From: Gammaproteobacteria bacterium
GTDB taxonomy: Bacteria; Pseudomonadota; Gammaproteobacteria; Arenicellales; Poriferihabitantaceae
Direction: 5' to 3'
Assembly (NCBI GenBank): GCA_030590945.1
Contig: JAUVBY010000004.1
Coordinates: 1 to 59,605, forward strand
DNA: 59,605 nucleotides
This document shows, piece by piece, positions 1 through 29,286 of this stretch (positions are counted from its first letter, which is position 1; each line of letters starts with the position of its first letter). Under the pieces are notes generated by a model. It saw only the letters and a program-made list of their open reading frames with translations, was not told the origin of the DNA and ran no database searches. Both the position numbers and the translations under genes were made by a program.

Positions 1-237
1 ATAATAACCTTCAGTGGTACCGCAATTGGTGATCGTGATTGGGGTGGTAGTGGCGCTATAGCGGCCGATGGCACCTTTTCTTTCAATGTTGTATTTACTC
101 GACCTGACAGACCCGCCGTGAATGAAACGATTTCTGGTACTGTTAGTGCTGATTGCCTCAGTATTTTCGGTTCACTGACAGATTGGGGAGATTTCAACGG
201 CGACATTGTGACTTCTAAAGAGCAGTGCCCTATTTGA
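1..237 (+). CDS. 3' part of a hypothetical beta-rich exported-type protein (5' end outside window); probable paralog of 6525..7007
   Basis: Frame 1 is open from base 1 to TGA at 235-237 ([31 protein letters not shown]...[36 protein letters not shown]) and is followed by a terminator; not in the ORF track. Confidence 0.7.
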
Positions 238-273
238 TATAATTTGAGTTTCCGGGTAAAACAGCATTAAAGT

Positions 274-299
274 AAGCCGCCTACCGAGGCGGTTTTTTA
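274..299 (+). terminator. Rho-independent terminator (target site of the group II intron)
   Basis: AAGCCGCCT-ACCG-AGGCGGTTTTTT: GC stem followed by a U tract. Confidence 0.9.
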
Positions 300-302
300 T
301 TG

Positions 303-954
303 GTGCGCCAGGCATGGCGCGTAGTGCCATAACTGGCGCTGTTCCGAACCACGTGGTGGTGTTCGGATGACTTGGAGGTGAAAGTCCTCTATCGGCCCGA
401 CAAGGGGAACGATTAGCCGGTCGGCAAGGGTGTCCATCGTGAGGTGGAATCTGAAGGAAGCCGCAGGCAAAACACTGGCTCGACGAACAGAAATCGCATA
501 TGAGGCGGTCGCAGTGGGTAAGAAGGCCAATATCTTCAAAGCCCGATACTTGTACGGAAACTGCGGACGTAGATGCGGGGGGCATAAGTGTGAAAGTCAC
601 GTGCATTACCCTGGGAGGTCAGCGCTCTTGCCACAGGCTACCGGCATCGTGAGATGTTGGAATGAGAGTACAGAAGTCAGCAGAGGCCATATTAGGTTTG
701 TCACCACAAACTGAAGGGCTGAACTTGTAAATGATGTTAAGTAAACGATCTCTGATTATTTAGAACAGATGCTCGAAAGAGGCCTTTAAACCCGTAAGAA
801 GTGGAAGACAGTATCTGAAGCTTGGGTTGGGTGTTTATTGAATGTCAGGCGACGTATTACAATGACAACTGATTTTGCAGGAACCGCCGTGGTACGGAAC
901 CGTGTGCCCGGTGGTGTGAGAGGACGGCGGGAGTAATCCTGCCTCCTACTCGAT
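303..954 (+). mobile_element. Group II intron, bacterial class C (IIC), ORF-less (no reverse transcriptase)
   Basis: 5' end GTGCGCCAGGCATGGCGCGT; DII/DIII motifs AGAAGTCAGCAGAGGCCATA and GAAGGGCTGAAC; domain V GAACCGCCGTGGTACGGAACCGTGTGCCCGGTGG with CGC triad (881-914); domain VI ending CCTACTCGAT; inserted 3 nt after a terminator; removing it restores a sequence 39/42 identical to 7037-7078. Confidence 0.93.
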
Positions 955-967
955 CCCAAAATGTCCG

Positions 968-1010
968 TATATGGACTCCTCCTCGCTTGCAAGCAATCTG
1001 TATACTGACG
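968..1010 (-). mobile_element. Possible right-end remnant of an IS1111-type (IS110 family) element, no transposase
   Basis: Minus strand reads GTCAGTATACAGATTGCTTGCAAGCGAGGAGGAGTCCATATA, resembling IS1111/IS4321 right ends (TTGCAA -35 box, sub-terminal IR, then TATA); recognised from memory of the family. Confidence 0.45.
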
Positions 1011-1226
1011 ATTAAGTACGTTGATTAAATAATGGGCATTCAAAATGCCAGTAAAAAATGGACCATGCCGACACAGCCTCAGCCTTTTCATGACGTCATT
1101 TGAATCAAATGTCTGGCTCAATGGGGCTATCTATATGGCAACAATTTCTGAGATAAACCGGTAAGGCTATATGCAGGCTGAAAATCCTGTCGGGATCTGT
1201 GGGTAAAATTCACCTAATTAAAGCAC

Positions 1227-1242
1227 TGCGGCATTATGCCGC
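1227..1242. promoter_or_regulatory. Palindromic RegA/PrrA/RoxR-like operator upstream of the DsrE-family gene
   Basis: TGCGGCATTATGCCGC fits GCGRC-N5-GYCGC; an identical 16-mer lies upstream of coxB. Confidence 0.55.
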
Positions 1243-1308
1243 TTTTCTGGATTTATGCTGCTCAATATAATTAATATTTTATTAACTACTTATTGAAGAG
1301 GTTTTATC

Positions 1309-1773
1309 ATGATCAACAGCCGAAAATCCCGTATCACGCTATTCTCAGCCTTTATATTTTTATTTTTCAGCGCCTTTTCAGTTGCACAGGCTGAAGATGC
1401 AAAAGGAGGTTTGTTTGTAAATTTAACCACTGATGACACCTGGGCTGCCACCAAAGCCATTATGTTTGCGCATCAAAAAGTCTTGAAAACGGGGCATAAA
1501 CCGGTGGCAATCTGGTTGAATGTGCGAGGCATCTATCTTGCCGATAAAAAGCGGGCTTCTCACGTACATGGCTTGATGCGCGAGAAGAATTTATCGATCC
1601 AAGATATGTTGGTAGCGTTTATGAAGGACGGTGGGATCGTGATCGCCTGTGGCGCTTGTTCTAAGGCGGCCGGCTTAAATAAAGATGATTTCATTGATGG
1701 AATACAAATGGGCAACCCGGAACTTGTGAATGGCCTGTTGTTCGATCCAGCGGTTAAAACGCTAGCTTGGTAA
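1309..1773 (+). CDS. DsrE/DsrF-like family protein with signal peptide
   Basis: Signal peptide, LFVNLTTDD, VAIWLNVRG and IACGACSKAAG motifs; RBS GAGG. Confidence 0.8.
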   Translation: MINSRKSRITLFSAFIFLFFSAFSVAQAEDAKGGLFVNLTTDDTWAATKAIMFAHQKVLKTGHKPVAIWLNVRGIYLADKKRASHVHGLMREKNLSIQDMLVAFMKDGGIVIACGACSKAAGLNKDDFIDGIQMGNPELVNGLLFDPAVKTLAW

Positions 1774-2169
1774 ATAACAGACATCCTTGCTTCACCGTGT
1801 TCCTGACTCGCCATGCACTTGAGCCGACTGAAGCAGGGATAGTTTTTATCTGGGGAAGTGCTTATTAAAACTGGCAAATCTCCTATATAACTAACTCATA
1901 CGTTTTAACTAGTGTTTACGATGGGGAAGCCGCCTCCTAAGCGGCGGGCCGGACGCTCGAATCGTCTCCATGCCAATCAGATCGGCCTAAATTGATCACT
2001 GTCCGCTTTAGAGAGCTTCCAGCGAAGGCCGAAAGTCGCCTCTCGATAAGTTTTCTTGAAAGGCGGCTTAGGGCTGAGCAGTCGTTTTGGCGCGCATCGA
2101 TACTTCTTTATTGCGGGAAAAATGGTGTTTATACTTCCTGTACTCTCTAACATATAAAGGTGTTGAATA

Positions 2170-3066
2170 GTGGAATCGCTATGGGTGTTTGCTGCGCTTG
2201 GCACGGCTACATGCTTTGCGGTAACAAGTTTGCTTGCCTACAATGCAGCTCGCGCCCTGGGGGTCGTCGTGTTTAGTTTTGTTAGAATGGCTATAGTGGC
2301 AATCGGTTTCGCGGCATACACGTTGATATCGGGTTTTGATACAACGATGCAAGTTTCCGATATCAGATTACTCGTCATATCCGGCGTTTTAGGCATGTTT
2401 TTTGCGGACACATTTCGATATTCATCGCTCATACGTATCGGTCCACAGCTTCAAGCGCTGCTAAATACGACAACTGCGCCCTTCGCATTGCTATTGGGCT
2501 TCCTGATCCTTGGTCAAGTCGTTAGCGGGCTGTCGCTAGTTGGCGTTAGTGTCGTCTTTGCGGGAATATTGTTGGTTATCGTTTCGCGTGACCCATCAGC
2601 ACTTGGTCGATTTTCGGGCGATAAGGATGGCATAGTGCCAGGGGTGCTATTTAGTATAGCATCGGCACTTATGCAGGCTGGCAGCCTTCTGATCGCAGCG
2701 CCTGTGATGCTACAGGGCATAGACCCCATTTCTGCCATGGTCGTGAGATCGGCAGCAGGTGCAGGCAGCCTATTGTTGCCCGCCCTGATCTCCAAGAAAA
2801 GCAGGGACAAAATCCGAACCATGAACCTTACCGTTGCACGACAAATCCTCCTGGTCGCGGTGATTGGCCCAGGTCTTGGAATGACCTTGCAACTCTATGC
2901 ACTCGCTACCGGGCCCGTTGGCATTGTGTCTACTCTGTCTTCGACAACACCTCTTATTATCTTGCCGTTGCTCTGGGTTATCGGCAAATCCCGACCGGGT
3001 TTGTTTTCATGGCTTGGGGCGCTCACCGGAATCCTGGGTGTTTGGCTGATCGTCAGCACAGGCTGA
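2170..3066 (+). CDS. DMT/EamA family transporter
   Basis: 298 aa, about 10 TM segments in two EamA-like halves. Confidence 0.85.
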   Translation: MESLWVFAALGTATCFAVTSLLAYNAARALGVVVFSFVRMAIVAIGFAAYTLISGFDTTMQVSDIRLLVISGVLGMFFADTFRYSSLIRIGPQLQALLNTTTAPFALLLGFLILGQVVSGLSLVGVSVVFAGILLVIVSRDPSALGRFSGDKDGIVPGVLFSIASALMQAGSLLIAAPVMLQGIDPISAMVVRSAAGAGSLLLPALISKKSRDKIRTMNLTVARQILLVAVIGPGLGMTLQLYALATGPVGIVSTLSSTTPLIILPLLWVIGKSRPGLFSWLGALTGILGVWLIVSTG

Positions 3067-3364
3067 GTTTGTGGTTACGTACGGCGTCATCACAGATTTG
3101 GGCAAGCGCTGTCCTGCGTTCTGATTGAGCGGCTGCTTTGGTAAAAGGGAGAATGCAGGGTAGATTGCTGTGCCGCGTCAGACAATAACCGGCCTAAAAG
3201 AGATATCCGTTGCCACGGTGTAATCTAGGTCCAAATATGAGCAAACTGCTAATACTATCTCGCAAAATCGTTCAATGCGTCCATGCGGGGAATGATATTA
3301 AATTGACTATTCTGTCTGTTCAGGGGTTGGGTGTCTGAAATCGCTCATTGGATTTATCAGTTGA

Positions 3365-3661
3365 TCAATGGTTTTCAGCTTCAATATAGCGACCATAATT
3401 TGTAATATGATCATTTAAATTATCGACAAGCATCGCCCTAAATTGTTCTGTAAAATATTGTATCGCTTCATCTTTGTCTTTCTTCATATCTTCTACGCCG
3501 TCAGACATTGAGGCAACAATAAATGAACTATATCTTGCCCCTGCATACAGTAATGAAGCATTTACTTTTTCATGGGTCTCATCGCTACTTTGTTCGTTGG
3601 CAAGGTGGATAAATTGATCAGCCCTTCCACGAAATGCTTTATCGTTAATTTCATCGCTCAT
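3365..3661 (-). CDS. DUF3144-like protein
   Basis: FRGRADQFIHLANEQ...VNASLLYAGARY...QFRAMLVDNLND pattern; ATG at 3661. Confidence 0.75.
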   Translation of the reverse strand: MSDEINDKAFRGRADQFIHLANEQSSDETHEKVNASLLYAGARYSSFIVASMSDGVEDMKKDKDEAIQYFTEQFRAMLVDNLNDHITNYGRYIEAENH

Positions 3662-4099
3662 ATTTGATTCCAAATCATTTTATAAAACAGGTTATACCGT
3701 AGTAAATATCGGTTTTGTTTCCGCCCGCCCTTAAAAGGAAGTAGATTAAAATTCCAGTGCTACGTTATTACTTTAGAGAGCTGCACCAGGGCTGCTACCC
3801 GAAAGTCATTCAAACACAAAATACCGGTAAAATTGCACCCCAGTCAGGACCAGTCGGACAGTTTAACCTGATTACATAAGAGACGCAGTATTCTGGTGAT
3901 ATCTTCAGGGACATATATCTTGATCGGCATTTTGATCTCCTTGGTCGGTTCAGTTTAAATCATTTACCATCTCGAAATGTAGAGCCGCTTTTGGGGGCAG
4001 GTCACTTGACACAGATAATTTAACATTGTAGATTAAGTGTGTCGCCTAAATAACGAATATTTAAGGTAAAAAAATAATATTAGAGTGTGGGATTAGTAA

Positions 4100-4681
4100 A
4101 TGATCAAAAACCTGACTATATCTTTAGTCGCAATTTGTACGCTGACCGGCTGTGAAGACTGGTGGGAAGGCTTATCAAGCACTGGCGGAGGCTCTGAAAA
4201 GCCAGTTCCTACGCAGGTAGTTAGTTTATCGACCGACACAACATCAAATATTACGCCTGACGCGCTAACGGGTAGTGCCAGCGATACATCCACCCCGAAC
4301 ACTAGTAACGATACCAAAGATGTTGCAGCTAATGCCAAGCCCACGGATGCCCCGATTGAAGCCGCGAGCGCTGAATCGAAGGACGCTTTGGATAAATGCG
4401 TGATCGGTAGATACGCTTTTATTACTACGCGCGATAATAAAACGCACTTCGACGCTCATTTCGAGGCAGGTGGTCATATACGCTATAACCTGAAAGACGG
4501 GCCGAGCGGTAAGTGGTCGCTAGATGGTGACAATATGGATGTTTATGGGCCTCTCAAGATGCCTGGAAAAAAGTACACCACGCTGCATATGGTCGTTTCC
4601 AGGCGAGCATCGGATTGCAAAGTTTTGGAGTTCCTGGGTAAGTCACCAGGCGGGCAGAGCCTGGCAGGAAGGCGAATGTAA
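4100..4681 (+). CDS. Hypothetical lipoprotein
   Basis: Lipobox LTGC, Ser/Thr-rich linker, C-terminal beta-type domain with two Cys. Confidence 0.75.
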   Translation: MIKNLTISLVAICTLTGCEDWWEGLSSTGGGSEKPVPTQVVSLSTDTTSNITPDALTGSASDTSTPNTSNDTKDVAANAKPTDAPIEAASAESKDALDKCVIGRYAFITTRDNKTHFDAHFEAGGHIRYNLKDGPSGKWSLDGDNMDVYGPLKMPGKKYTTLHMVVSRRASDCKVLEFLGKSPGGQSLAGRRM

Positions 4682-4998
4682 TTTCGCGACTATAAATCGC
4701 AGATATGGCTGCGTGATCGCAATATGTTTAGAATAATTGTTAGTGAGCCACTTACCGGACTTCGCCTAAAACCGTAGACACCAAGAGTAATTTTAAGCCC
4801 GCTATATGGACTATATTAAGGCCATTTTATTTATAGGGGTAGCCACCTACCTGTAAGCTATTGTTGATTCTGTAACATGCCTGCCGCGTGCTTTACAATG
4901 AACCAAAAAGAATACACACCTCGCCACCACTGACTTTGCGCCTGAAACAGCCTTCCAAAATGACTGTTACTCGCTCGAACTGGTCATTTCGTACAATC

Positions 4999-5057
4999 GC
5001 CTAACGTCTGCCTCAGACGCGCCATTTTTTGGCGCCGCTCTGGGGCAATTGTTATGT
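4999..5057 (-). mobile_element. Integron attC recombination site (59 bp)
   Basis: Minus strand ACATAAC-AATTG-CCCCAGAGCGGCGCC-AAAAAAT-GGCGCGTCTGAGG-CAGAC-GTTAGGC: inverse core ending TAAC, imperfect inner stem, core GTTRRRY. Confidence 0.8.
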
Positions 5058-5106
5058 TCTTGCATCTAAAAGAGTGCTTTCTAAATGTGTGATTCAGAAA
5101 TCATAG

Positions 5107-5211
5107 TTACCTTTTATTGGCTTTCTTTTCCCTTTTTTCATTACGCTTTTCTTTCAATGTTTTTTCAGGTTTCTTTTTATCTGTTTTTTGTGCATCTCGA
5201 CCTTTAGCCAT
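5107..5211 (-). CDS. 34-aa lysine-rich small protein carried on an integron-type cassette
   Basis: AAGGAGAG RBS, then MAKGRDAQKTDKKKPEKTLKEKRNEKREKKANKR*; lies between core GTTATGT (5275) and the attC. Confidence 0.75.
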   Translation of the reverse strand: MAKGRDAQKTDKKKPEKTLKEKRNEKREKKANKR

Positions 5212-5533
5212 AATTCTCTCCTTACTATTTGTTAATTATTAAACGCCTTTAACTAGATTGTATCTAGAACATAACAACTATTATACACCTTGGTAAGGTG
5301 TATAAAACTTATTTGAAATGCGTGCAATGTCACGGGGAAAATCGAAAAATAAATCTGGATCAATGACAGCTAATCGCCTTGAGTTCAATCGATCAACGCA
5401 ATACTTTATCAAACAAAAATCGTTCTCATTAGTCTTAACTGCTGGATGTTTGCCTATGAGAACAGGCTTTATATTCAGCATTAAATAGTATATAATGCTA
5501 TTCTTATATGCATCCAAACACAGGAAAACTACC

Positions 5534-5749
5534 ATGTCTATAGAACGTACACTATTCGCATTTGGCGGCATCATGGTGATGCTTACATCACTTCTCGCTA
5601 TCTTTCACAACCCCAACTGGACCTGGTTTACTTTATTTGTAGGCTTTAACTGTTTTCAAAGCTCATTCACCGGATTCTGTCCGCCGGCATGGGCCATGAA
5701 AAAGTTTGGAATGAAATCAGAAGCAGAACTGGCCAGCACTAATAAATAA
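5534..5749 (+). CDS. DUF2892 (YgaP-like) inner membrane protein
   Basis: MSIER...FVGFNCFQSSFTGFCP motif; RBS AGGA. Confidence 0.85.
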   Translation: MSIERTLFAFGGIMVMLTSLLAIFHNPNWTWFTLFVGFNCFQSSFTGFCPPAWAMKKFGMKSEAELASTNK

Positions 5750-5814
5750 GCCCGGGCAGTTTATATGTAAATTTTCTGTTGTAGAAAAATAGAGTTTTTT
5801 GAAAAGATTAAGTG

Positions 5815-5968
5815 TCCCCCTTTTGCAAAGGGGGGGGCGAGGGCGATTATGAACAGTTAATGAACAGTTAATGAACAGTTAATGAACAGTTAATGAACAT
5901 TAGTGTAATTCAATATTGCTTATTCGATTCTAAATCTCCCCCAACCCCTTTTTGTCAAAGAGGGGAGC
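5815..5968. repeat. Inverted pair of CCCC-TTT/AAA-GGGG REP-like palindromes enclosing an 11-bp tandem repeat
   Basis: TCCCCCTTTTGCAAAGGGGGGGG...GATT and AAATCTCCCCCAACCCCTTTTTGTCAAAGAGGGGA; ATGAACAGTTA x4 plus 7 nt at 5849-5899. Confidence 0.8.
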
Positions 5969-6402
5969 ATTCGAGATTGATTTGGCGGGTTTAGATTTTA
6001 TCCAGCTTACGTAAGCCATTTGGTAGCAGCTTCAGGTCTGCCATGCCCGCTACCAGTGCTTTGCCAAAACTCGCTTCTTCTTCATAGACCATTTTGTAGT
6101 ACAGGCATAAAGGTGATGCAGTTACTGTAAGTTATTGTTTGTTAAATTATTATAGACATCTAAATATTGCTAGTTTATTCTCAAGGTGGAATGCTAGGTG
6201 GAATTAGTTATAAAAATCCACATAAACCAGTAAGAACAATTACTTCCTACTGCCTTTAAGACTGATTTTTATGAAACTGTATGACTAACCATTAAATACA
6301 TCCAGTTCTAACTGTATGCAACCTGTATGCCTATGGAGCCTGAAAATTATCTTTTTCACATAGCTTAATCTTAGGTGTTAATGCATCGCCCCTAAGGGTT
6401 CT

Positions 6403-6437
6403 AAAATGTCCGCTGCATACACCTTAGCCGACATTTT
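6403..6437. repeat. Hairpin site AAAATGTCCGCT-N11-AGCCGACATTTT; left arm directly repeated at 7067-7080 and partly at 955-967
   Basis: Near-perfect 12-bp inverted repeat; CTAAAATGTCCGCT identical at 6401-6414 and 7067-7080. Confidence 0.7.
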
Positions 6438-6524
6438 ATTTCAGGGCATAGCTAGTTTCCCACTGTACTGGTAAGTAAACAGTAAATCACATAGACTTGT
6501 CGAAAAATTAACTAGGAAACAATA

Positions 6525-7007
6525 ATGACCGACAAGAAATCAAACGATAGCAGACGTAAACTGCTCAAATCCATTGCTGCTGGGTCTGGTGCTGTGGTAG
6601 CAGGTAAGTCTCTCCCAGAGTCTTGGAGCAAGCCTGTAATCAACTCGATAGTGCTTCCGTCACACGCTGCATTAACAGACGGAGGGGATGCATCAACCAC
6701 GCCAGAAGCTACTACTACTCCAGAGTGTTGTCTTGTTGTCGGTACTTACTGTTTTTCAAATTTTTATGAAGGTGATGATTTAATTATATACGTAGCTGCT
6801 AGTGGAAAGATTACCTTCGACATAGATGGAGTCAGCGAATTTGGTACTACTATCTTATGCACGGGAGAAGATTTTTCTGCCGCTAATGGGGGTTACACAG
6901 TAAAAGGCCATATTGGCTGTAATGCAACATCTATAATCGGTACAATATCAGTTACAGATGGCCCTCCTAATATCCCATACGAAGCAAAACCTGAGAATTG
7001 TGGCTAA
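6525..7007 (+). CDS. Exported hypothetical protein with twin-arginine-type leader and WxKPV..I.LPxHA motif
   Basis: SRRKLLK, hydrophobic stretch, LPESWSKPVINSIVLPSHA, Thr/Pro linker, Cys-containing beta-rich C-terminus; RBS AGGA. Confidence 0.85.
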   Translation: MTDKKSNDSRRKLLKSIAAGSGAVVAGKSLPESWSKPVINSIVLPSHAALTDGGDASTTPEATTTPECCLVVGTYCFSNFYEGDDLIIYVAASGKITFDIDGVSEFGTTILCTGEDFSAANGGYTVKGHIGCNATSIIGTISVTDGPPNIPYEAKPENCG

Positions 7008-7036
7008 CTAAGCTGAGATTCCTATTTAAAGATATC

Positions 7037-7062
7037 AAGCCGCCTTCCGAGGCGGTTTTTTA
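7037..7062 (+). terminator. Rho-independent terminator; intron-free copy of the site at 274
   Basis: AAGCCGCCTTCCGAGGCGGTTTTTT. Confidence 0.9.
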
Positions 7063-7153
7063 TGGCCTAAAATGTCCGCTTCGGTTAAGGATTGTTAGAC
7101 AACTGCGCACATTCCCATCCATTGAATGACACGTCGATTTCTGCTGCGCAGAT

Positions 7154-7204
7154 GTTTAACAATCGATCAAGTAGGAAACCGCGGGGCTTAATTCGGTGCT
7201 ATGG
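7154..7204 (+). mobile_element. Degenerate attC-like site
   Basis: GTTTAAC-AATCG-ATCAAG...GCTTAAT-TCGGT-GCTATGG; a matching core GTTAGAC lies at 7094-7100. Confidence 0.45.
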
Positions 7205-7306
7205 GGAGGGGAGAGTAGAGGGGCGGGGTTGGATGCAATTTAACAGTAGACACCCTTGATACTGTGCAATAATGAGCACATTTAGGTACTTAAAAAACAA
7301 ACACCG

Positions 7307-7391
7307 ACTGGCCGTCTTACCCGCGGAGGCGGGTGTCCATAATACTGCTAGAGACTGGTTTATAGATTCCCGCCTGCGCGGGAATGACGTT
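7307..7391 (-). repeat. 85-bp REP doublet (GTCATTCCCGCG...GCGGGAATC family), copy 1
   Basis: Reverse complement aligns end to end with 29169-29253 and 31590-31674. Confidence 0.9.
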
Positions 7392-7506
7392 CAAACCGGA
7401 CAGAATGCTGATAAGCATAAGTTGAATTCCTTAAGATTCTCCCTGTATCACGCGGGCCTTTAGGGACGCGCGATGTGGTTCTCTTCGCGGAAATCCGGCT
7501 GCTTTG

Positions 7507-8415
7507 CTATAGAGCGTTGATGGTCTTTTGCAAGCCTAACTGGTTTCGGCGTTCCCGGTGCTTGCTGTCAAGATATTCGGATTCACTCATCTCATTAAGC
7601 TGCGGAAATTTCTCGGTGCGTTTAAACCAGTCGTGCAATTGCGCCTCGTAACGTTTTTCCGTGTTCGTTTCGGTGAATCTGTCAAAAAACGTCATGAAAG
7701 CAAAATAATATCTGACCAGGTTGCGTTCAGCAACGCCTTCAGCGCCGCTCGAATAGACCGGATTGCCCTGTGCATCGCCTTCGGTTACCTTAATACCTTT
7801 TTTATCCTTGCCCAGCGTCGAAAGGTATACGTTCATGCCCTTGCGGCTAATCCAGCTTTGATGGTTTGCTACAAAGATCCGGCCGAATGTTTTACCGTCA
7901 ATATTGGTAAACTCCAATTTAATCTGGTAGTCACTCGTACTTAGCGGGCCTTCGTCTGCGTGTGCAATTGCTGCGAAATAGTTATCCGTGCTGATCGTTT
8001 TAAAACTATAAACAAGCTCGAATGCCTCATCCGGCGTTTGGTAGTGTTTTCGGCCCATGTACAGGGTCATTTCGTTACCTGCGAGATTGTAAGTGCAGGT
8101 TTTTACATTGATATGCAAAGGCAGAATGTTGCACCAGTTTCCAAGTGTGCCTAGTGCGCTGGATACTTCTTTCACGCTGAGTGGTATATATACGGCGGCT
8201 TCGCCCGATTCGATTTCTTTTGTATTTTCTGCCTGGAGATAAAAGGGGTTTTCAGGGCTCGGGTTATCTAAGGTGTTTTTTGCGCGTTCGTACAGGGCAC
8301 GCATGGCTAATACCGGATCACTATTCGGCGTGACCGCCAGTATCGGGGTTTGGATGCTTAACACCAACGCCATGCACAGGCTTGCTCGCCAGAAGGCGTA
8401 TAAGCGGACCCTCAC
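7507..8415 (-). CDS. Hypothetical exported protein
   Basis: 302-aa ORF with signal peptide, 2 nt downstream of the nhaA stop; WCNILPLHINVKTC and GVAERNLVRYY blocks. Confidence 0.8.
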   Translation of the reverse strand: MRVRLYAFWRASLCMALVLSIQTPILAVTPNSDPVLAMRALYERAKNTLDNPSPENPFYLQAENTKEIESGEAAVYIPLSVKEVSSALGTLGNWCNILPLHINVKTCTYNLAGNEMTLYMGRKHYQTPDEAFELVYSFKTISTDNYFAAIAHADEGPLSTSDYQIKLEFTNIDGKTFGRIFVANHQSWISRKGMNVYLSTLGKDKKGIKVTEGDAQGNPVYSSGAEGVAERNLVRYYFAFMTFFDRFTETNTEKRYEAQLHDWFKRTEKFPQLNEMSESEYLDSKHRERRNQLGLQKTINAL

Positions 8416-8417
8416 AA

Positions 8418-9809
8418 CTAAGACCGGGAGTGAGCTGGTTCCGGCTTACTGACAAGAAAGAGCCAGACATATCCTGCCACACCTGCCAGCAAAGAGGCCG
8501 CCAGTATGCCTGTTTTTGCCATCAGAAGCAGATCCTCCCGTTCTCCAAAACCCAGTTGGGCCACAAATATGGACATGGTGAAGCCGATGCCTGCCAGTAA
8601 TGATACGCCGGCGATTTGCGTAAATCGAGTTCCCTTAGGCAACTGGGCGTAGCCCAATTTCAGTACCAGCCAGCTAAACCCGGTAATGCCGACAAACTTG
8701 CCCACCACCAGCCCCAGTGAAACGCCGATTAAAACCGGGTGTTTCATCGTTTCACTGAGCGAATCAAATTCCAGCGGGATGCCGGCATTAACCAGCGCAA
8801 ATATTGGAATAACCAGATAAGCCACAGGCAGATGCCAGATGTGCTCGAGCCGTTGCAGGGGTGCTTCAACGCTGTGTACACCGTTGCCCAGCGTTTGTAC
8901 TACACCACGTAGGGATTCATTGGTCATGATGCTTTTTCCGCGCTGATGGCTGGCATCAAATTTGTGCATCAGATCAGTGACGCATTCACTGAAGCGTTGC
9001 GGGTCAAATTTAGGTGTCGCAGGAACCGTCATGGCACCCAGGATGCCCGCGATGGTGGCGTGAACACCCGATTGCAGCAGGGCATACCACAGGAAAACTG
9101 CAAGGATGAAATAGGGCATGGTCGTGCGGATTCCGATCATATTTAGCGCCAGCAGCAAAGCGAACAACGCACCTGCAACCATTAATGGCGCCATCGCAAT
9201 GCTCTCCGTATAGAAAAAAGCGATTACCATGACCGCGCCCAGATCATCCACAATGGCCAGTGCCACCAGAAATGTAATCAGTGCTTTGGGAACCCTACTC
9301 GCAAGCAGCGCGAGTGCACCGACCGCAAACGCAATATCAGTAGCCATGGGTACGCCCCAACCGAGTGCGGCATCGCCACTGGGGTTAATCGCAAAGTAGA
9401 TCAATGCGGGCACTACCATGCCGCCAATAGCGGCCGCGATAGGCATCGTGGCCTTTCGTGGGTCGGCTAACTCACCAACCAGGAACTCACGTTTAAGCTC
9501 CAGTCCGACAACAAAAAAGAAAAAAACCATGAGGCCGTCATTAACCCAATGTTGCAGCGTCATTTTCAGCGTCCACTCACCGACACCGATGCCTATATAG
9601 GTGTGAATAACCTTACTGTATGCCTCGGCGTATGGCCCATTGGCCAGAATAAGCGCAAGTATTGCCATGCCCATGAGCAGTAGTCCACTGGTGGTCTGGC
9701 GATGTATGAACTCTTCGAATGGCGTAAGAATCTTGTCGAAACTTTTCTCCCAGGGAGCATGGTAAACGCCGTCTTGTTGGCCGGTTTCGGGGTGGTTTGG
9801 TTTGCTCAT
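8418..9809 (-). CDS. nhaA: Na+/H+ antiporter NhaA
   Basis: WVNDGLM, GLELKRE, PMATDIAFA, LAIVDDL and GIGFTMSIF motifs. Confidence 0.97.
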   Translation of the reverse strand: MSKPNHPETGQQDGVYHAPWEKSFDKILTPFEEFIHRQTTSGLLLMGMAILALILANGPYAEAYSKVIHTYIGIGVGEWTLKMTLQHWVNDGLMVFFFFVVGLELKREFLVGELADPRKATMPIAAAIGGMVVPALIYFAINPSGDAALGWGVPMATDIAFAVGALALLASRVPKALITFLVALAIVDDLGAVMVIAFFYTESIAMAPLMVAGALFALLLALNMIGIRTTMPYFILAVFLWYALLQSGVHATIAGILGAMTVPATPKFDPQRFSECVTDLMHKFDASHQRGKSIMTNESLRGVVQTLGNGVHSVEAPLQRLEHIWHLPVAYLVIPIFALVNAGIPLEFDSLSETMKHPVLIGVSLGLVVGKFVGITGFSWLVLKLGYAQLPKGTRFTQIAGVSLLAGIGFTMSIFVAQLGFGEREDLLLMAKTGILAASLLAGVAGYVWLFLVSKPEPAHSRS

Positions 9810-28205: not shown

Positions 28206-29072
28206 ATGTCCAATACAGCAGGCAATCATTATTACGTTCCTAACGGCACCAAGTGGCCGTTTATCGGGTCTGTCGGCCTGACCACGCTTATAGTGGGTTT
28301 CATAAATCTACTTAACGGCAGCGAAAATGGTAAATATGTCATGATCGTGGGCGCGTTGATCCTGACCTATATGCTGTTTGGCTGGTTTGGCCAGGTGATT
28401 GAGGAGAGCGAGAATAGTACCTATGGTGCGTGGGAAGATAAATCGTTTCGTCTGGGCATGAGCTGGTTTATATTCTCGGAAGTCATGTTCTTTGCAGCCT
28501 TTTTTGGCGCTTTGTTTTATGCGCGTGTCCTGTCTGTGCCATGGCTGGGCGGCGCGGGCGATGATGCCGATACCAACCGGATGTTATGGGAAGGTTTTCA
28601 GGCAGTCTGGCCCACCAATGGCCCGGGTGAACTAGGTGGTGAATATGAGGTTATGGCTGCGTGGGGTTTGCCCGCCTTGAATACGCTAATTCTGTTAACC
28701 TCAGGTGTGACGGTTACCTGGGCACATCACGCGCTCAAAAAAGATAACCGCAAGCATCTGATCATAGGTTTGGCGTTGACCGTCGCCCTCGGTTTCCTGT
28801 TCGTTTTCCTGCAGGCCATTGAATATAAAGAAGCTTACCATACCGGTTTAACGCTGGGCTCGGGTATCTATGGTTCGACCTTTTTCATGCTCACTGGTTT
28901 TCACGGTTTACACGTGACGCTGGGTGCGATTATGTTAACCGTAATGCTGGTTCGTTCAATGCGTGGACACTTCACATCAAAAAATCATTTTGCATTTGAA
29001 GCGGCTGCCTGGTACTGGCACTTTGTTGACGTGGTCTGGCTGGGGCTGTTTATTTTCGTTTACTGGTTGTAA
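28206..29072 (+). CDS. coxC: Cytochrome c oxidase subunit III
   Basis: FIFSEVMFF, TGFHGLHV, AWYWHFVDVVW. Confidence 0.97.
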   Translation: MSNTAGNHYYVPNGTKWPFIGSVGLTTLIVGFINLLNGSENGKYVMIVGALILTYMLFGWFGQVIEESENSTYGAWEDKSFRLGMSWFIFSEVMFFAAFFGALFYARVLSVPWLGGAGDDADTNRMLWEGFQAVWPTNGPGELGGEYEVMAAWGLPALNTLILLTSGVTVTWAHHALKKDNRKHLIIGLALTVALGFLFVFLQAIEYKEAYHTGLTLGSGIYGSTFFMLTGFHGLHVTLGAIMLTVMLVRSMRGHFTSKNHFAFEAAAWYWHFVDVVWLGLFIFVYWL

Positions 29073-29090
29073 GCGCACATAGCCAGGATG

Positions 29091-29123
29091 AAAAAGCGCT
29101 ACTGTCATGGTAGCGTTTTTTTT
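29091..29123. terminator. Rho-independent terminator after coxC
   Basis: AAAAAGCGCTAC-TGTCATG-GTAGCGTTTTTTTT. Confidence 0.8.
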
Positions 29124-29168
29124 GAGCTTTTAAAGATAGAGTATTTATGTGTACGACTGTTCGGAATA

Positions 29169-29253
29169 AACGTCATTCCCGTGTAGACGGGAATCTATAA
29201 CCCTGTCACTAATGGCGTTATGGATACCCGCCTTCGCGGGTAAGACGGACAGT
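29169..29253 (+). repeat. 85-bp REP doublet, copy 2
   Basis: AACGTCATTCCCGTGTAGACGGGAATCTA...TGGATACCCGCCTTCGCGGGTAAGACGG. Confidence 0.9.
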
Positions 29254-29286
29254 CGTCGTTTGCAGGTCTTGTTGTACAGCCGAAGA

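Follow-up and report, generated by a model that had tools for sequence, protein, structure and literature searches.

The window analysed here, the whole stretch of 59,605 nt, belongs to the 2.78-Mb genome G000, and the features treated below are listed in Table 1. The protein encoded by gene 6525-7007 matches no Pfam family, and the TAT models remained under the cut-off. The search for homologues delivered 498 proteins, many of them alike in the leader only. Two pairs of family members each share one metagenome contig, P0011 and P0098 a contig of 12,927 nt and P0093 and P0100 a contig of 10,215 nt. In a tblastn comparison ORF 1..237 showed no similarity to the 6525-7007 protein, in agreement with the earlier note, which had described the coding sequences of these two modules as highly divergent.

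At the position syntenic to the YeeE/YedE-like remnant, contig C522 of the relative G006 carries an intact gene of 422 aa. The truncated gene marks the left limit of a stretch, about 6116-7480, which is inserted or replaced in comparison with G006. The repeat abutting the left motif M is 82-83% identical to C135:2117-2343 and also matches contigs C121 and C141; the tRNA genes adjoining other copies are those for tRNA-Val and tRNA-Glu.

Table 1. Features of the window (positions counted from its first nucleotide)
Feature	Position	Strand	Basis or remark
ORF 3' part, 78 aa, open at contig start	1..237	+	upstream neighbour of copy A
Left-end hairpin and T-run, copy A, AAGCCGCCTACCGAGGCGG TTTTTTATTG	274-302	+	HMM, fold, identity
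ORF-less group II intron	303-954	+	Rfam; inside copy A, between T-run and M
Motif M, copy A, CCCAAAATGTCCG	955-967	+	directly after the group II intron
Right-end terminus, finishing ...GTTTATACTTCCTGTAC	2086-2146	+	HMM and alignment
YeeE/YedE-like gene, last ~38 codons	5991-6110	-	remainder missing
~220-bp repeat abutting left M	6180-6400	+	beside tRNA genes elsewhere in G000
Motif M, left copy, CTAAAATGTCCGCT	6401-6414	+	read from sequence
Hairpin M - 11 nt - M'	6401-6437	+	left M and inverted partner
160-aa protein gene	6525-7007	+	Tat-like leader, variable Cys-containing C-terminal part
Left-end hairpin and T-run, copy C	7037-7066	+	HMM; terminator-like hairpin of gene 6525-7007
Motif M, right copy, CTAAAATGTCCGCT	7067-7080	+	part of left-end copy C
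MITE-like inverted-repeat element	7083-7207	+	breaks left-end copy C right after M

The perfect 14-bp direct repeat reported to flank gene 6525-7007 and its terminator is present, and its left copy is indeed one arm of a hairpin, pairing with AGCCGACATTTT (M', 6426-6437) at 11 of 12 bases across the 11-nt loop. The folding energy of this palindrome as single-stranded DNA is -7.1 kcal/mol (z = -2.43), a value also attained by 3 of 200 shuffles. With up to two mismatches allowed, M is matched three times in the window, where 0.62 matches are expected; 1 of 100 shuffles reached this number. The motif also adjoins a paralogue on G000 contig C74, which has the same M-loop-M' arrangement upstream (local alignment score 25, equalled by none of 300 shuffles); together with the excess in the window this recurrence upholds the view that M is not a product of chance. 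Positions 348-369 of contig C141 match the palindrome region at 20 of 22 bases, 45 nt past a variant hairpin.

M, or M-loop-M', had been proposed as a site-specific recombination site, so that the loop, M', the gene, its terminator and the next M would form a one-gene cassette, able to circularize (~666 bp) and to integrate at other M sites. The units in the window and on C74 each lie between two directly oriented copies of M, the inverted M' standing beside the left one, as such a cassette would. Homology also breaks at the ends of M: the match of locus L047, like that of a 624-nt contig from run X7, is confined to 7037-7080, and the similarity of C135 ends where M begins, which bears out the claim that the motif marks homology breakpoints. 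An IS30-family fragment, the group II intron and the MITE-like element are clustered at M sites. Nevertheless, the cassette reading is highly improbable. G000 has no more than about six M sites, distributed over four loci, the exact 12-mer occurring twice, both times in the window repeat, and the 10-mer AAAATGTCCG 12 times against ~5 expected from composition; inverted M/M' pairs show no enrichment (7 convergent versus 5 divergent, 12/10 for a control word), and M is not a site recurring genome-wide. No recombinase lies near any copy: the three tyrosine recombinases of G000 are located on contigs C63, C132 and C16, and the Y1 transposase profile (PF01797) has no match in this genome of 99% completeness. 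M does not stand at the bounds of the stretch that differs from G006, contrary to what was predicted for strain indels. Logan contigs of four runs (X1, X2, X6 and X7), a type of data that misses rare forms, contained neither a joint from 6400 to 7067 nor a circle joint over 5400-8500; the arrangement 6290-7066 is unchanged in X1 and partly seen in X7. Contig joints from 6589 and from 6608 to 7036, with sides of just 27-28 letters, are putative paralogues with a common leader and hairpin. Finally, M is explained below as part of an IS91-family end.

The statement that conservation stops at the motif holds between the two modules of the window, but not in comparison with C74, where similarity continues past M into a ~90-bp inverted-repeat element, nor in an alignment of eight copies, in which weaker similarity goes about six bases beyond M (TTCGGG / TAAGGG).

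In copy A the hairpin and M are separated by the group II intron, the only Rfam match at E <= 0.1 over 1-7600 (RF02001, 146.8 bits; RF01998, 67.3 bits; domains D1-D4 at 433-604 and 638-719) and single-copy in G000. Its ends were set by eye from the GTGCG 5' end and from the fit of the restored exon junction to the left-end consensus. Once the intron is removed, the junction of copy A equals that at 7051-7078 with two mismatches. The hairpins 274-300 and 7037-7063 are identical at 26 of 27 positions, and the earlier observation of a second module end with the same 3' boundary is therefore borne out. Copy A matches the left-end HMM at 274-302 (E 3.3e-7) and its hairpin folds at -8.1 kcal/mol (z -3.49); the match of copy C extends over 7037-7094 (E 2.3e-17).

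Eight copies of this block from five sources share a sharp left edge, AAGCCGCC, and can be aligned through the T-run and M, the hairpin AAGCCGCC..GGCGG standing at the common boundary. The DNA to the left of this edge is unrelated among them. Six of the eight left-end copies with upstream sequence are preceded by a co-oriented ORF ending 23-58 nt before the hairpin, and five of these six genes come from one paralogous family. The capture of unrelated genes would be represented by L046 only, to which G055 (262 nt off) and L045 (no ORF of at least 50 aa) may be added. The exact hairpin was found at three metagenome loci and in one genome record. Searched for the left end at E <= 0.01, the 243 genomes of the order gave matches in 7, convincing ones only in G000, G006 and G055, and the 218-nt sequence of a mini-element used as query matched 4 of 400 genomes in a sample of the class, none of the matches being both new and convincing.

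The left-end block is linked to a transposase in G055, a related genome from another family of the order. Copy C is 81% identical over 54 nt (E 1.7e-8) to a block on contig C79 of G055, which lies 135 nt upstream of an intact ORF of 498 aa with the Pfam domains Y2_Tnp (E 1.7e-36) and Zn_Tnp_IS91 (E 1.7e-18). Ahead of a second, frameshifted transposase copy in this genome (C19) the near-identical M TTAAATGTCCGCTTAGGGCAAG is found ~195 nt upstream of the start. The G055 transposase is ~70% identical over 99% of its length to a protein of plasmid NZ_CP071767.1, whose own copy lacks a left end of this type (left-end HMM E 2.8). Hairpin, M and transposase occur together in one intact element only, G055:C79; the left ends of other full-length homologues (G026, G114, G093 and G042) are different or unreadable. 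Homologues of the transposase were detected in 41 of the 243 genomes of the order. G000 itself holds fragments, the best one of 52 residues on C48, with DNA fragments on C7, C123, C129 and C47, and the Y2 profile matches just a 39-position fragment.

A right end was recognized as well. This oriIS-type terminus lies downstream of the transposase genes of G055, G042 and G004, more loosely that of G026, and can be aligned across G055, G042, G004, G006:C561, C47 and the window. The right-end HMM matches the window at 2086-2149 (E 9.1e-13), G000 contigs C47, C123 and C89, and the plasmid 200-233 nt past the stop of the annotated 'IS91 family transposase' (E 2.5e-6). The complete element of G055 consists of a GC-rich terminal hairpin, T-run, M, loop, M', ~90 nt, the transposase, ~230 nt and the right end, whose last letters are CTTCCTATAC. 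Two transposase-less mini-elements, G006:C561 (212 bp) and L047 (210 bp), have the hairpin, M, loop and M' joined to the right terminus; no direct repeat indicative of a target-site duplication flanks either of this small sample. In classical IS91 a tetranucleotide target of the GTTC/CTTG type lies beside oriIS and is echoed at the left terminus. No such target was seen here, the right flanks reading TCTC, TCAG, TCAT, CCTG, ACGC and TCAC and the left terminus AAGC; the termini were placed at homology breaks and may be a few bases off.

The same distribution might be sought in plain duplication within the gene family, the flanks having been copied too, with the hairpin an ordinary terminator under selection, M the remnant of an old tandem array and the adjacency in G055 coincidental. 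Paralogues of gene 6525-7007 exist in G000 with leader DNA 72-82% identical, and the hairpin and M are restricted to the closest paralogue subfamily, the hairpin being present at 4 of 30 leader-family gene loci in nine genomes of the genus; both observations would agree with duplication. This account is very unlikely, however: the hairpin is 96-100% identical between copies despite adjoining coding DNA that has diverged beyond recognition, this block also stands behind a gene from outside the family in L046 and in front of two transposase copies in G055, two minis of near-equal length combine it with the right end, and unrelated genes occupy the 6.7 kb that separate the two modules of the window.

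The hairpin together with M is probably the left, terIS-side end of an insertion sequence of the IS91/ISCR family, of which the window retains relics. The shared 'terminator' AAGCCGCCTTCCGAGGCGG with its T-run and the M that follows would then form one unit, the terIS-side end of an element with a Y2 HUH transposase and rolling-circle transposition. The decayed pieces in G000 would comprise copy A, split by the intron, the right end at 2086-2146, the isolated palindrome 6401-6437 and copy C (7037-7080), cut by the MITE-like element. The 14-bp direct repeat would be present because two partial left-end pieces flank the gene in the same orientation. The earlier proposal of an undescribed mobile cassette system is correct in that the motif belongs to mobile DNA, but the reading as an undescribed system is not supported: environmental ends of the ISCR/IS91 type, natural mini-derivatives and relics near a family of small secreted proteins probably take its place. 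Similarly, the expected enzyme was met as a HUH/Y2 transposase of the IS91 family in the relative G055, and not as a tyrosine recombinase near the copies.

The palindrome 6401-6437 is interpreted as the internal part of a left-end region, standing alone without the terminal hairpin. M and M' are all that it has in common with the left end, and its loop is 11 nt long versus 65-125 nt in the minis. Comparison with the two minis showed no significant similarity beyond the arms (score reached by 10 of 300 and 0 of 300 shuffles, the aligned stretch being the arms). The idea that a decayed right end lies between M' and the Tat genes was dropped, the right-end HMM giving a best E of 13 over eight upstream regions. 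Likewise, a DsrE-like gene was considered as cargo; a search with 968-2150 in five genomes delivered no second unit of left end, gene and right end, and a 50-nt piece (1920-1969) was the sole conserved part.

In the IS91 family the ends terIS and oriIS are distinct and carry subterminal palindromes, with terIS on the upstream side of the transposase, and failure of termination in 1-14% of events mobilises adjacent DNA (available extract of PMC13181058). The left end of the family has a conserved GC-rich stem-loop, and for IS801 miniature derivatives are known, as is the transfer of 290-1431 nt of upstream DNA (available extract of PMC3189936). A one-ended step of this kind, in which replication starts at oriIS, runs past terIS and takes upstream DNA with it, may have spread the units of gene and left end and would explain their dispersed copies. 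The Logan contigs of the four runs show neither an alternative arrangement nor joints at the ends of the element. Because G000 holds fragments of the transposase and no intact one, the pieces in the window are likely relics or non-autonomous derivatives, probably immobile today unless helped in trans. A more far-reaching reading is quite unlikely: the ~210-bp minis and the single-gene units, with M-loop-M' ahead of the gene and the left-end hairpin and M after it, would still be trans-mobilised by ISCR-type transposases in the seep and sediment communities and serve as a rolling-circle cassette vehicle that disperses and reshuffles small Tat-exported proteins, with the terIS hairpin acting as terminator, as transposition stop and as homing site of a class-C-like intron.

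M-loop-M' could also be mainly a cis-regulatory palindrome, that is, an operator or promoter, with the downstream M as simply the opening half of the following one. M' ends ~88 nt before the ATG of both the G055:C79 transposase and gene 6525 of the window, and ~90 nt before it on C74. Boxes similar to GACATTT occur upstream of the paralogues C75, C148, G006:C2 and C561, but at the more distant paralogues they are short and could be due to chance. The terIS region is the site of the transposase promoter and operator, in ISCR a LexA operator (available extract of PMC13393415). On the other hand, the palindromic hairpin gave no sigma-70-like promoter in a simple scan, and the 5' UTRs of transposase and Tat genes cannot be aligned. 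As the main function of the palindrome, regulation appears unlikely; it is compatible with, not opposed to, the explanation as an IS91-type end. A LexA box at copy A was rejected, the spacing being unlike CTGT-N8-ACAG. The left-end hairpin may serve the upstream gene as a terminator as well. The promoter and terminator scan did not flag the hairpin 7037-7063, an omission that we ascribe to the possible extension of its stem into the T-run.

The elements described here resemble IS91, IS801, IS1294 and the ISCR type of resistance plasmids such as NZ_CP071767.1 in the Y2_Tnp and Zn_Tnp_IS91 domains of a transposase ~70% identical to plasmid copies, in two non-identical ends that are not mutually inverted, in a GC-rich stem-loop at terIS upstream of the transposase, in a conserved right end homologous to that of the plasmid copy and in the lack of a target-site duplication at two minis. 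The short transposase-less derivatives and the genes directly upstream of the left end correspond to one-ended products of this group, as far as the extracts of PMC13181058 and PMC3189936 describe them. They differ from it by the additional left-end box M with its long-range inverted partner M', which is not found in the available extracts of the IS91/ISCR literature, by a terminal hairpin and T-run resembling an intrinsic terminator for the upstream gene, and by a target rule of the GTTC/CTTG type that is not evident. The host is an uncultured gammaproteobacterium from cold seeps or sediment, and the neighbouring genes encode small secreted proteins with a Tat leader and are not resistance genes.

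Integron cassettes likewise consist of single genes between imperfect palindromes that are conserved at the ends and variable in the centre, whereas here each gene has its own terminator hairpin and the handful of sites form no array. M is unlike attC, as had been stated: by reading, it lacks RYYYAAC/GTTRRRY core sites in the right order, and no integron integrase is nearby, the three Phage_integrase matches being on other contigs. REP/BIME-RAYT systems and the PATEs of IS200/IS605 share short palindromes after genes, and the chemistry would likewise be of the HUH type, but G000 encodes no Y1 transposase and M does not recur across the genome. Xer-dependent dif modules are also one-gene modules bracketed by short recombination sites; the 12-base arms and 11-nt spacer differ from the 11-6-11 arrangement of dif, and no likeness to the dif core was apparent by eye.

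ISCR elements are of importance for gene capture, but poor definition of their terIS ends is a limitation. The present clade, in which a sharp left end is composed of a terminal GC hairpin, an M box and an inverted partner, could help to clarify termination and read-through. The locus also illustrates that IS relics can mimic cassette boundaries, and that a hairpin at terIS can be taken for a terminator, or function as one, and can become the target of a group II intron.

The sequence 7083-7170 was considered as an attC site and rejected, GTTAGAC and GTTTAAC being in the wrong order. Further copies of the MITE-like element are located at C74:5686-5766, where the inner part is inverted relative to the gene, and on contig C472 of G006, there without M. 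The copy in the window folds at -18.9 kcal/mol, a value equalled by 0 of 200 shuffles.

The window comprises the complete contig C185 of its genome (G000), and the sequence anatomy around the repeat is real. CTAAAATGTCCGCT occurs in direct repeat at 6401-6414 and 7067-7080 (motif M), as the earlier note had reported for a perfect 14-bp repeat flanking the gene 6525-7007 and its terminator. In the palindrome AAAATGTCCGCT-N11-AGCCGACATTTT (6401-6437), the left copy makes up one arm; as single-stranded DNA the palindrome folds at -7.1 kcal/mol, a value equalled by 3 of 200 shuffles. With up to two mismatches, M has three matches in the window against 0.62 expected, a count reached in 1 of 100 shuffles. 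The second module claimed, consisting of the truncated ORF 1..237, the same terminator and M once an intron is removed, was also recovered: the hairpin 3' of this ORF (274-300) matches that at 7037-7063 at 26 of 27 positions, and the intron-removed junction differs from 7051-7078 by two mismatches.

Coordinates of features at the repeat locus and of their copies (C-numbers without prefix are contigs of the window's own genome, G000; G006 is a relative)
Feature	Location	Remarks
160-aa ORF	6525-7007	between the two M copies
GC-rich hairpin with T-run	7037-7063	between the two M copies, with the ORF
~220-bp repeat	window 6180-6400; C135:2117-2343; C121:~29040-29190; C141:84-181; C74:5554-5579	three CTGTATG-like words
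MITE-like element	window 7083-7207; C74:5686-5766; G006:C472:116-239	~25-bp terminal inverted repeats
REP-like repeat	window 7278-7408; window 29157-29262; C53; C88; C172	core ...TTCCCGCCTGCGCGGGAATGAC...

The locus is best explained by a decayed element of IS91/ISCR type and its mini-derivatives, a kind already known. The hairpin with M is likely an IS left end, and hairpin, T-run and M together would form the terIS side of such an element. Eight left-end copies were aligned (window copy C, 7037-7080; C74 and C135; G006:C561 and G055:C79 from relatives; metagenome loci L045, L046 and L047). All begin exactly at AAGCCGCC, with unrelated DNA leftward; hairpin, T-run, (T/G)GCCT and an M-like box are common to all of them. 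G055 is from a different family within the order. Its copy of the block, 81% identical over 54 nt, is followed 135 nt further on by an ORF of 498 aa that matches Y2_Tnp (E 1.7e-36) and Zn_Tnp_IS91 (E 1.7e-18) in Pfam, and a box like M', the inverted partner of M, lies ~88 nt upstream of the ATG of this ORF. A second, frameshifted transposase copy (G055:C19) has TTAAATGTCCGCTTAGGGCAAG ~195 nt before its start and is without the terminal hairpin.

The hairpin 274-300 is followed by a group II intron that contains no ORF and matches Rfam D1-D4 models at 433-604 and 638-719. Its ends were set at 303 and 954, its length is 652 nt, and it occurs once in the genome; CCCAAAATGTCCG (955-967) follows 3'. 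It sits within the putative left end, exactly between the hairpin T-run and M. Insertion after terminators is a habit of class C group II introns, and the placement looks like this.

The right end lies ~230 nt past the G055 transposase stop, finishing ...GTTTATGCTTCCTATAC, and is also found in G042 and G004 of the window's genus and, in a looser version, in G026. Both ends are joined in a transposase-less mini of 212 bp in G006:C561 (hairpin, M, 65 nt, M', right end) and in one of 210 bp with the same layout in L047. An HMM built on seven right ends matches the window right end, which stops at 2146 (GATACTTCTTTATTGCGGGAAAAATGGTGTTTATACTTCCTGTAC; E 9.1e-13), and elsewhere in the genome C47, C123 and C89. 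Over 99% of its length, the G055 transposase shares ~70% identity with proteins annotated 'IS91 family transposase' on at least 5000 plasmid records. On NZ_CP071767.1, a plasmid of A. towneri, the right-end HMM matches 200-233 nt past the transposase stop (E 2.5e-6), and the left-end HMM gave no match at the transposase locus. The IS91-family element of plasmids pGX3, pGX5 and pGX7 of the same species is named ISCR2 (PMC7758954).

Of 243 genomes of the order, 41 have transposase homologues; the window's genome keeps decayed remains only (52 residues on C48; DNA fragments on C7, C123, C129 and C47). Between left-end copy A (274-302 and 955-967) and the right end at 2146, where a transposase would be expected, lies a DsrE-like gene (1309-1773). 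Its product is small and bears a signal peptide; the Pfam DsrE match is under the cut-off (E 6.3e-4). No second unit of left end, DsrE gene and right end was found in the 5 genomes searched. A 50-nt stretch at 1920-1969, which includes a hairpin resembling that of the left end (AAGCCGCCTCCTAAGCGGCGG), is 82-88% conserved in G002, G006 and G055 and has no Rfam match.

IS91-family elements are described as having two unlike ends, terIS and oriIS, both with subterminal palindromes, and as inserting without target duplication; 89 bp of left and 82 bp of right end are enough for a mini-IS, and in 1-14% of events transposition does not terminate at terIS and takes adjacent DNA with it (PMC13181058). 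A stem-loop lies in a conserved GC-rich part of their left end, and IS801 gives rise to miniature forms and has mobilised 290-1431 nt lying upstream of it (PMC3189936). The terIS region of ISCR elements is the site of the transposase promoter and in some also of a LexA operator (PMC13393415). Like this family, the present element has a left-terminal hairpin upstream of the transposase, a conserved right end different from the left, and natural minis. Unlike in classical IS91, a GTTC/CTTG-type target beside oriIS was not seen; the right-end flanks are TCTC, TCAG, TCAT, CCTG, ACGC and TCAC.

The gene 6525-7007 is probably a neighbour that was carried, or duplicated, together with a left end. One-ended transposition would carry a gene upstream of the left end and yield gene-plus-end units, and a spread of the units in this manner is proposed tentatively. 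A co-oriented ORF ends 23-58 nt 5' of the hairpin in six of the eight left-end copies having upstream sequence, the exceptions being G055 (ORF end 262 nt from the hairpin) and L045 (no ORF of at least 50 aa).

The earlier note had instead taken M for the site of a gene cassette system. Homology does break at M ends in L047, in a 624-nt contig of metagenome run X7 and in C135, but such breaks would also arise where a conserved box of an IS gives way to its variable loop, and similarity to C74 runs on beyond M, so that the claim of homology stopping at M stands in part. Contigs from four runs, one from each of four studies, show the window arrangement unchanged wherever they cover it, and neither a 6400->7067 joint nor the joint of the predicted ~666-bp circle appears in them, although contigs cannot reveal rare forms. 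M is not a genome-wide site. Its exact 12-mer is limited to the two window places in 2.78 Mb, and M/M' pairs at most 150 nt apart (7 convergent, 5 divergent) do not exceed a control word (12 and 10). The 10-mer AAAATGTCCG occurs 12 times against ~5 expected from even base composition, three of them within the window locus; related M copies elsewhere are few (two beside the C74 paralogue, one at C141:348-369). The genome (99% complete) has three Phage_integrase matches (C63, C132, C16), no Y1 transposase was found in it, and a search beside its M copies gave no recombinase; of the enzymes the earlier note had suggested, there is the Y2_Tnp ORF 3' of the block in G055. A true site-specific cassette system is very improbable.

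Under the preferred IS reading, the right M copy belongs to left-end copy C, which is broken three bases past M by an inverted-repeat element. The left belongs to an isolated M-loop-M' palindrome, which also stands 5' of the C74 paralogue, the alignment score of 25 being attained in 0 of 300 shuffles. The C141 match (20 of 22) lies 45 nt past a similarly built variant hairpin. [quoted passage not shown] This IS30-family element has further ends on C76 and C69. Because the palindrome recurs at C74, and at C141 past a variant hairpin, 6401-6437 is read as a putative remnant of a second left-end region with the same orientation. Its similarity to left ends is limited to the arms, its loop is far shorter than in the minis, and no degenerate right end turned up in the sequence from M' to the gene when one was looked for.

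The product of 6525-7007 has a Tat-like leader, for which TAT models score under the cut-off, and no Pfam family. This leader (window 6525-6680 and paralogues: SRRKLLKSIAAGSGAVVAGKSLPExWxKPV..V.LPxHA) precedes unrelated C-terminal parts on C74, C148, C135, C123, C75, C126 and C175, with fragments on C49 and C80. It is present at scattered places in 8 of 9 genus genomes (proteins of 46-866 aa) and in 498 database proteins, most on ~1 kb contigs; no curated family was found for it. Judged by these sequences, it is a shared export signal before very different proteins. Hairpin and M are confined to the closest subfamily, the hairpin occurring in 4 of 30 leader-gene loci (85,927 nt): the window, C74, C135 and G006:C561. 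In G007, three members stand nearly in tandem (C9, 1317568-1320792).

G006:C522 is syntenic to the window on both sides of the locus. On the minus strand at 5991-6110, only the final ~38 codons remain of a gene for a YeeE/YedE-like membrane protein; G006:C522 has the whole gene (422 aa) at this place. By this comparison the window-specific stretch ~6116-7480 is an insertion or replacement of which M is not the boundary, contrary to the idea that M copies delimit presence/absence differences between relatives. Its order is ~220-bp repeat, M-loop-M', gene, GC hairpin with M, MITE-like element and REP-like repeat. The ~220-bp repeat, which could be an arm of an integrative islet, sits 50-120 nt 3' of tRNA-Val (C135) and tRNA-Glu (C121), with a remnant ~150 nt 3' of tRNA-Ser (C74); the window copy has no adjoining tRNA. 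Relative to the adjacent gene, the inner part of the MITE-like element is oppositely oriented in the window and C74, and its word depth in two metagenome runs is 232 and 119 against single digits in neighbouring bins. The REP-like repeat of 7278-7408 is also found in G006, G015, G027, G034 and G040 of the order. Between C-rich REP-like palindromes (5815-5990), the 11-bp unit ATGAACAGTTA is repeated four times in tandem (5849-5903), and each of the four metagenome runs has multiple copies of the REP-like part 5920-6023.
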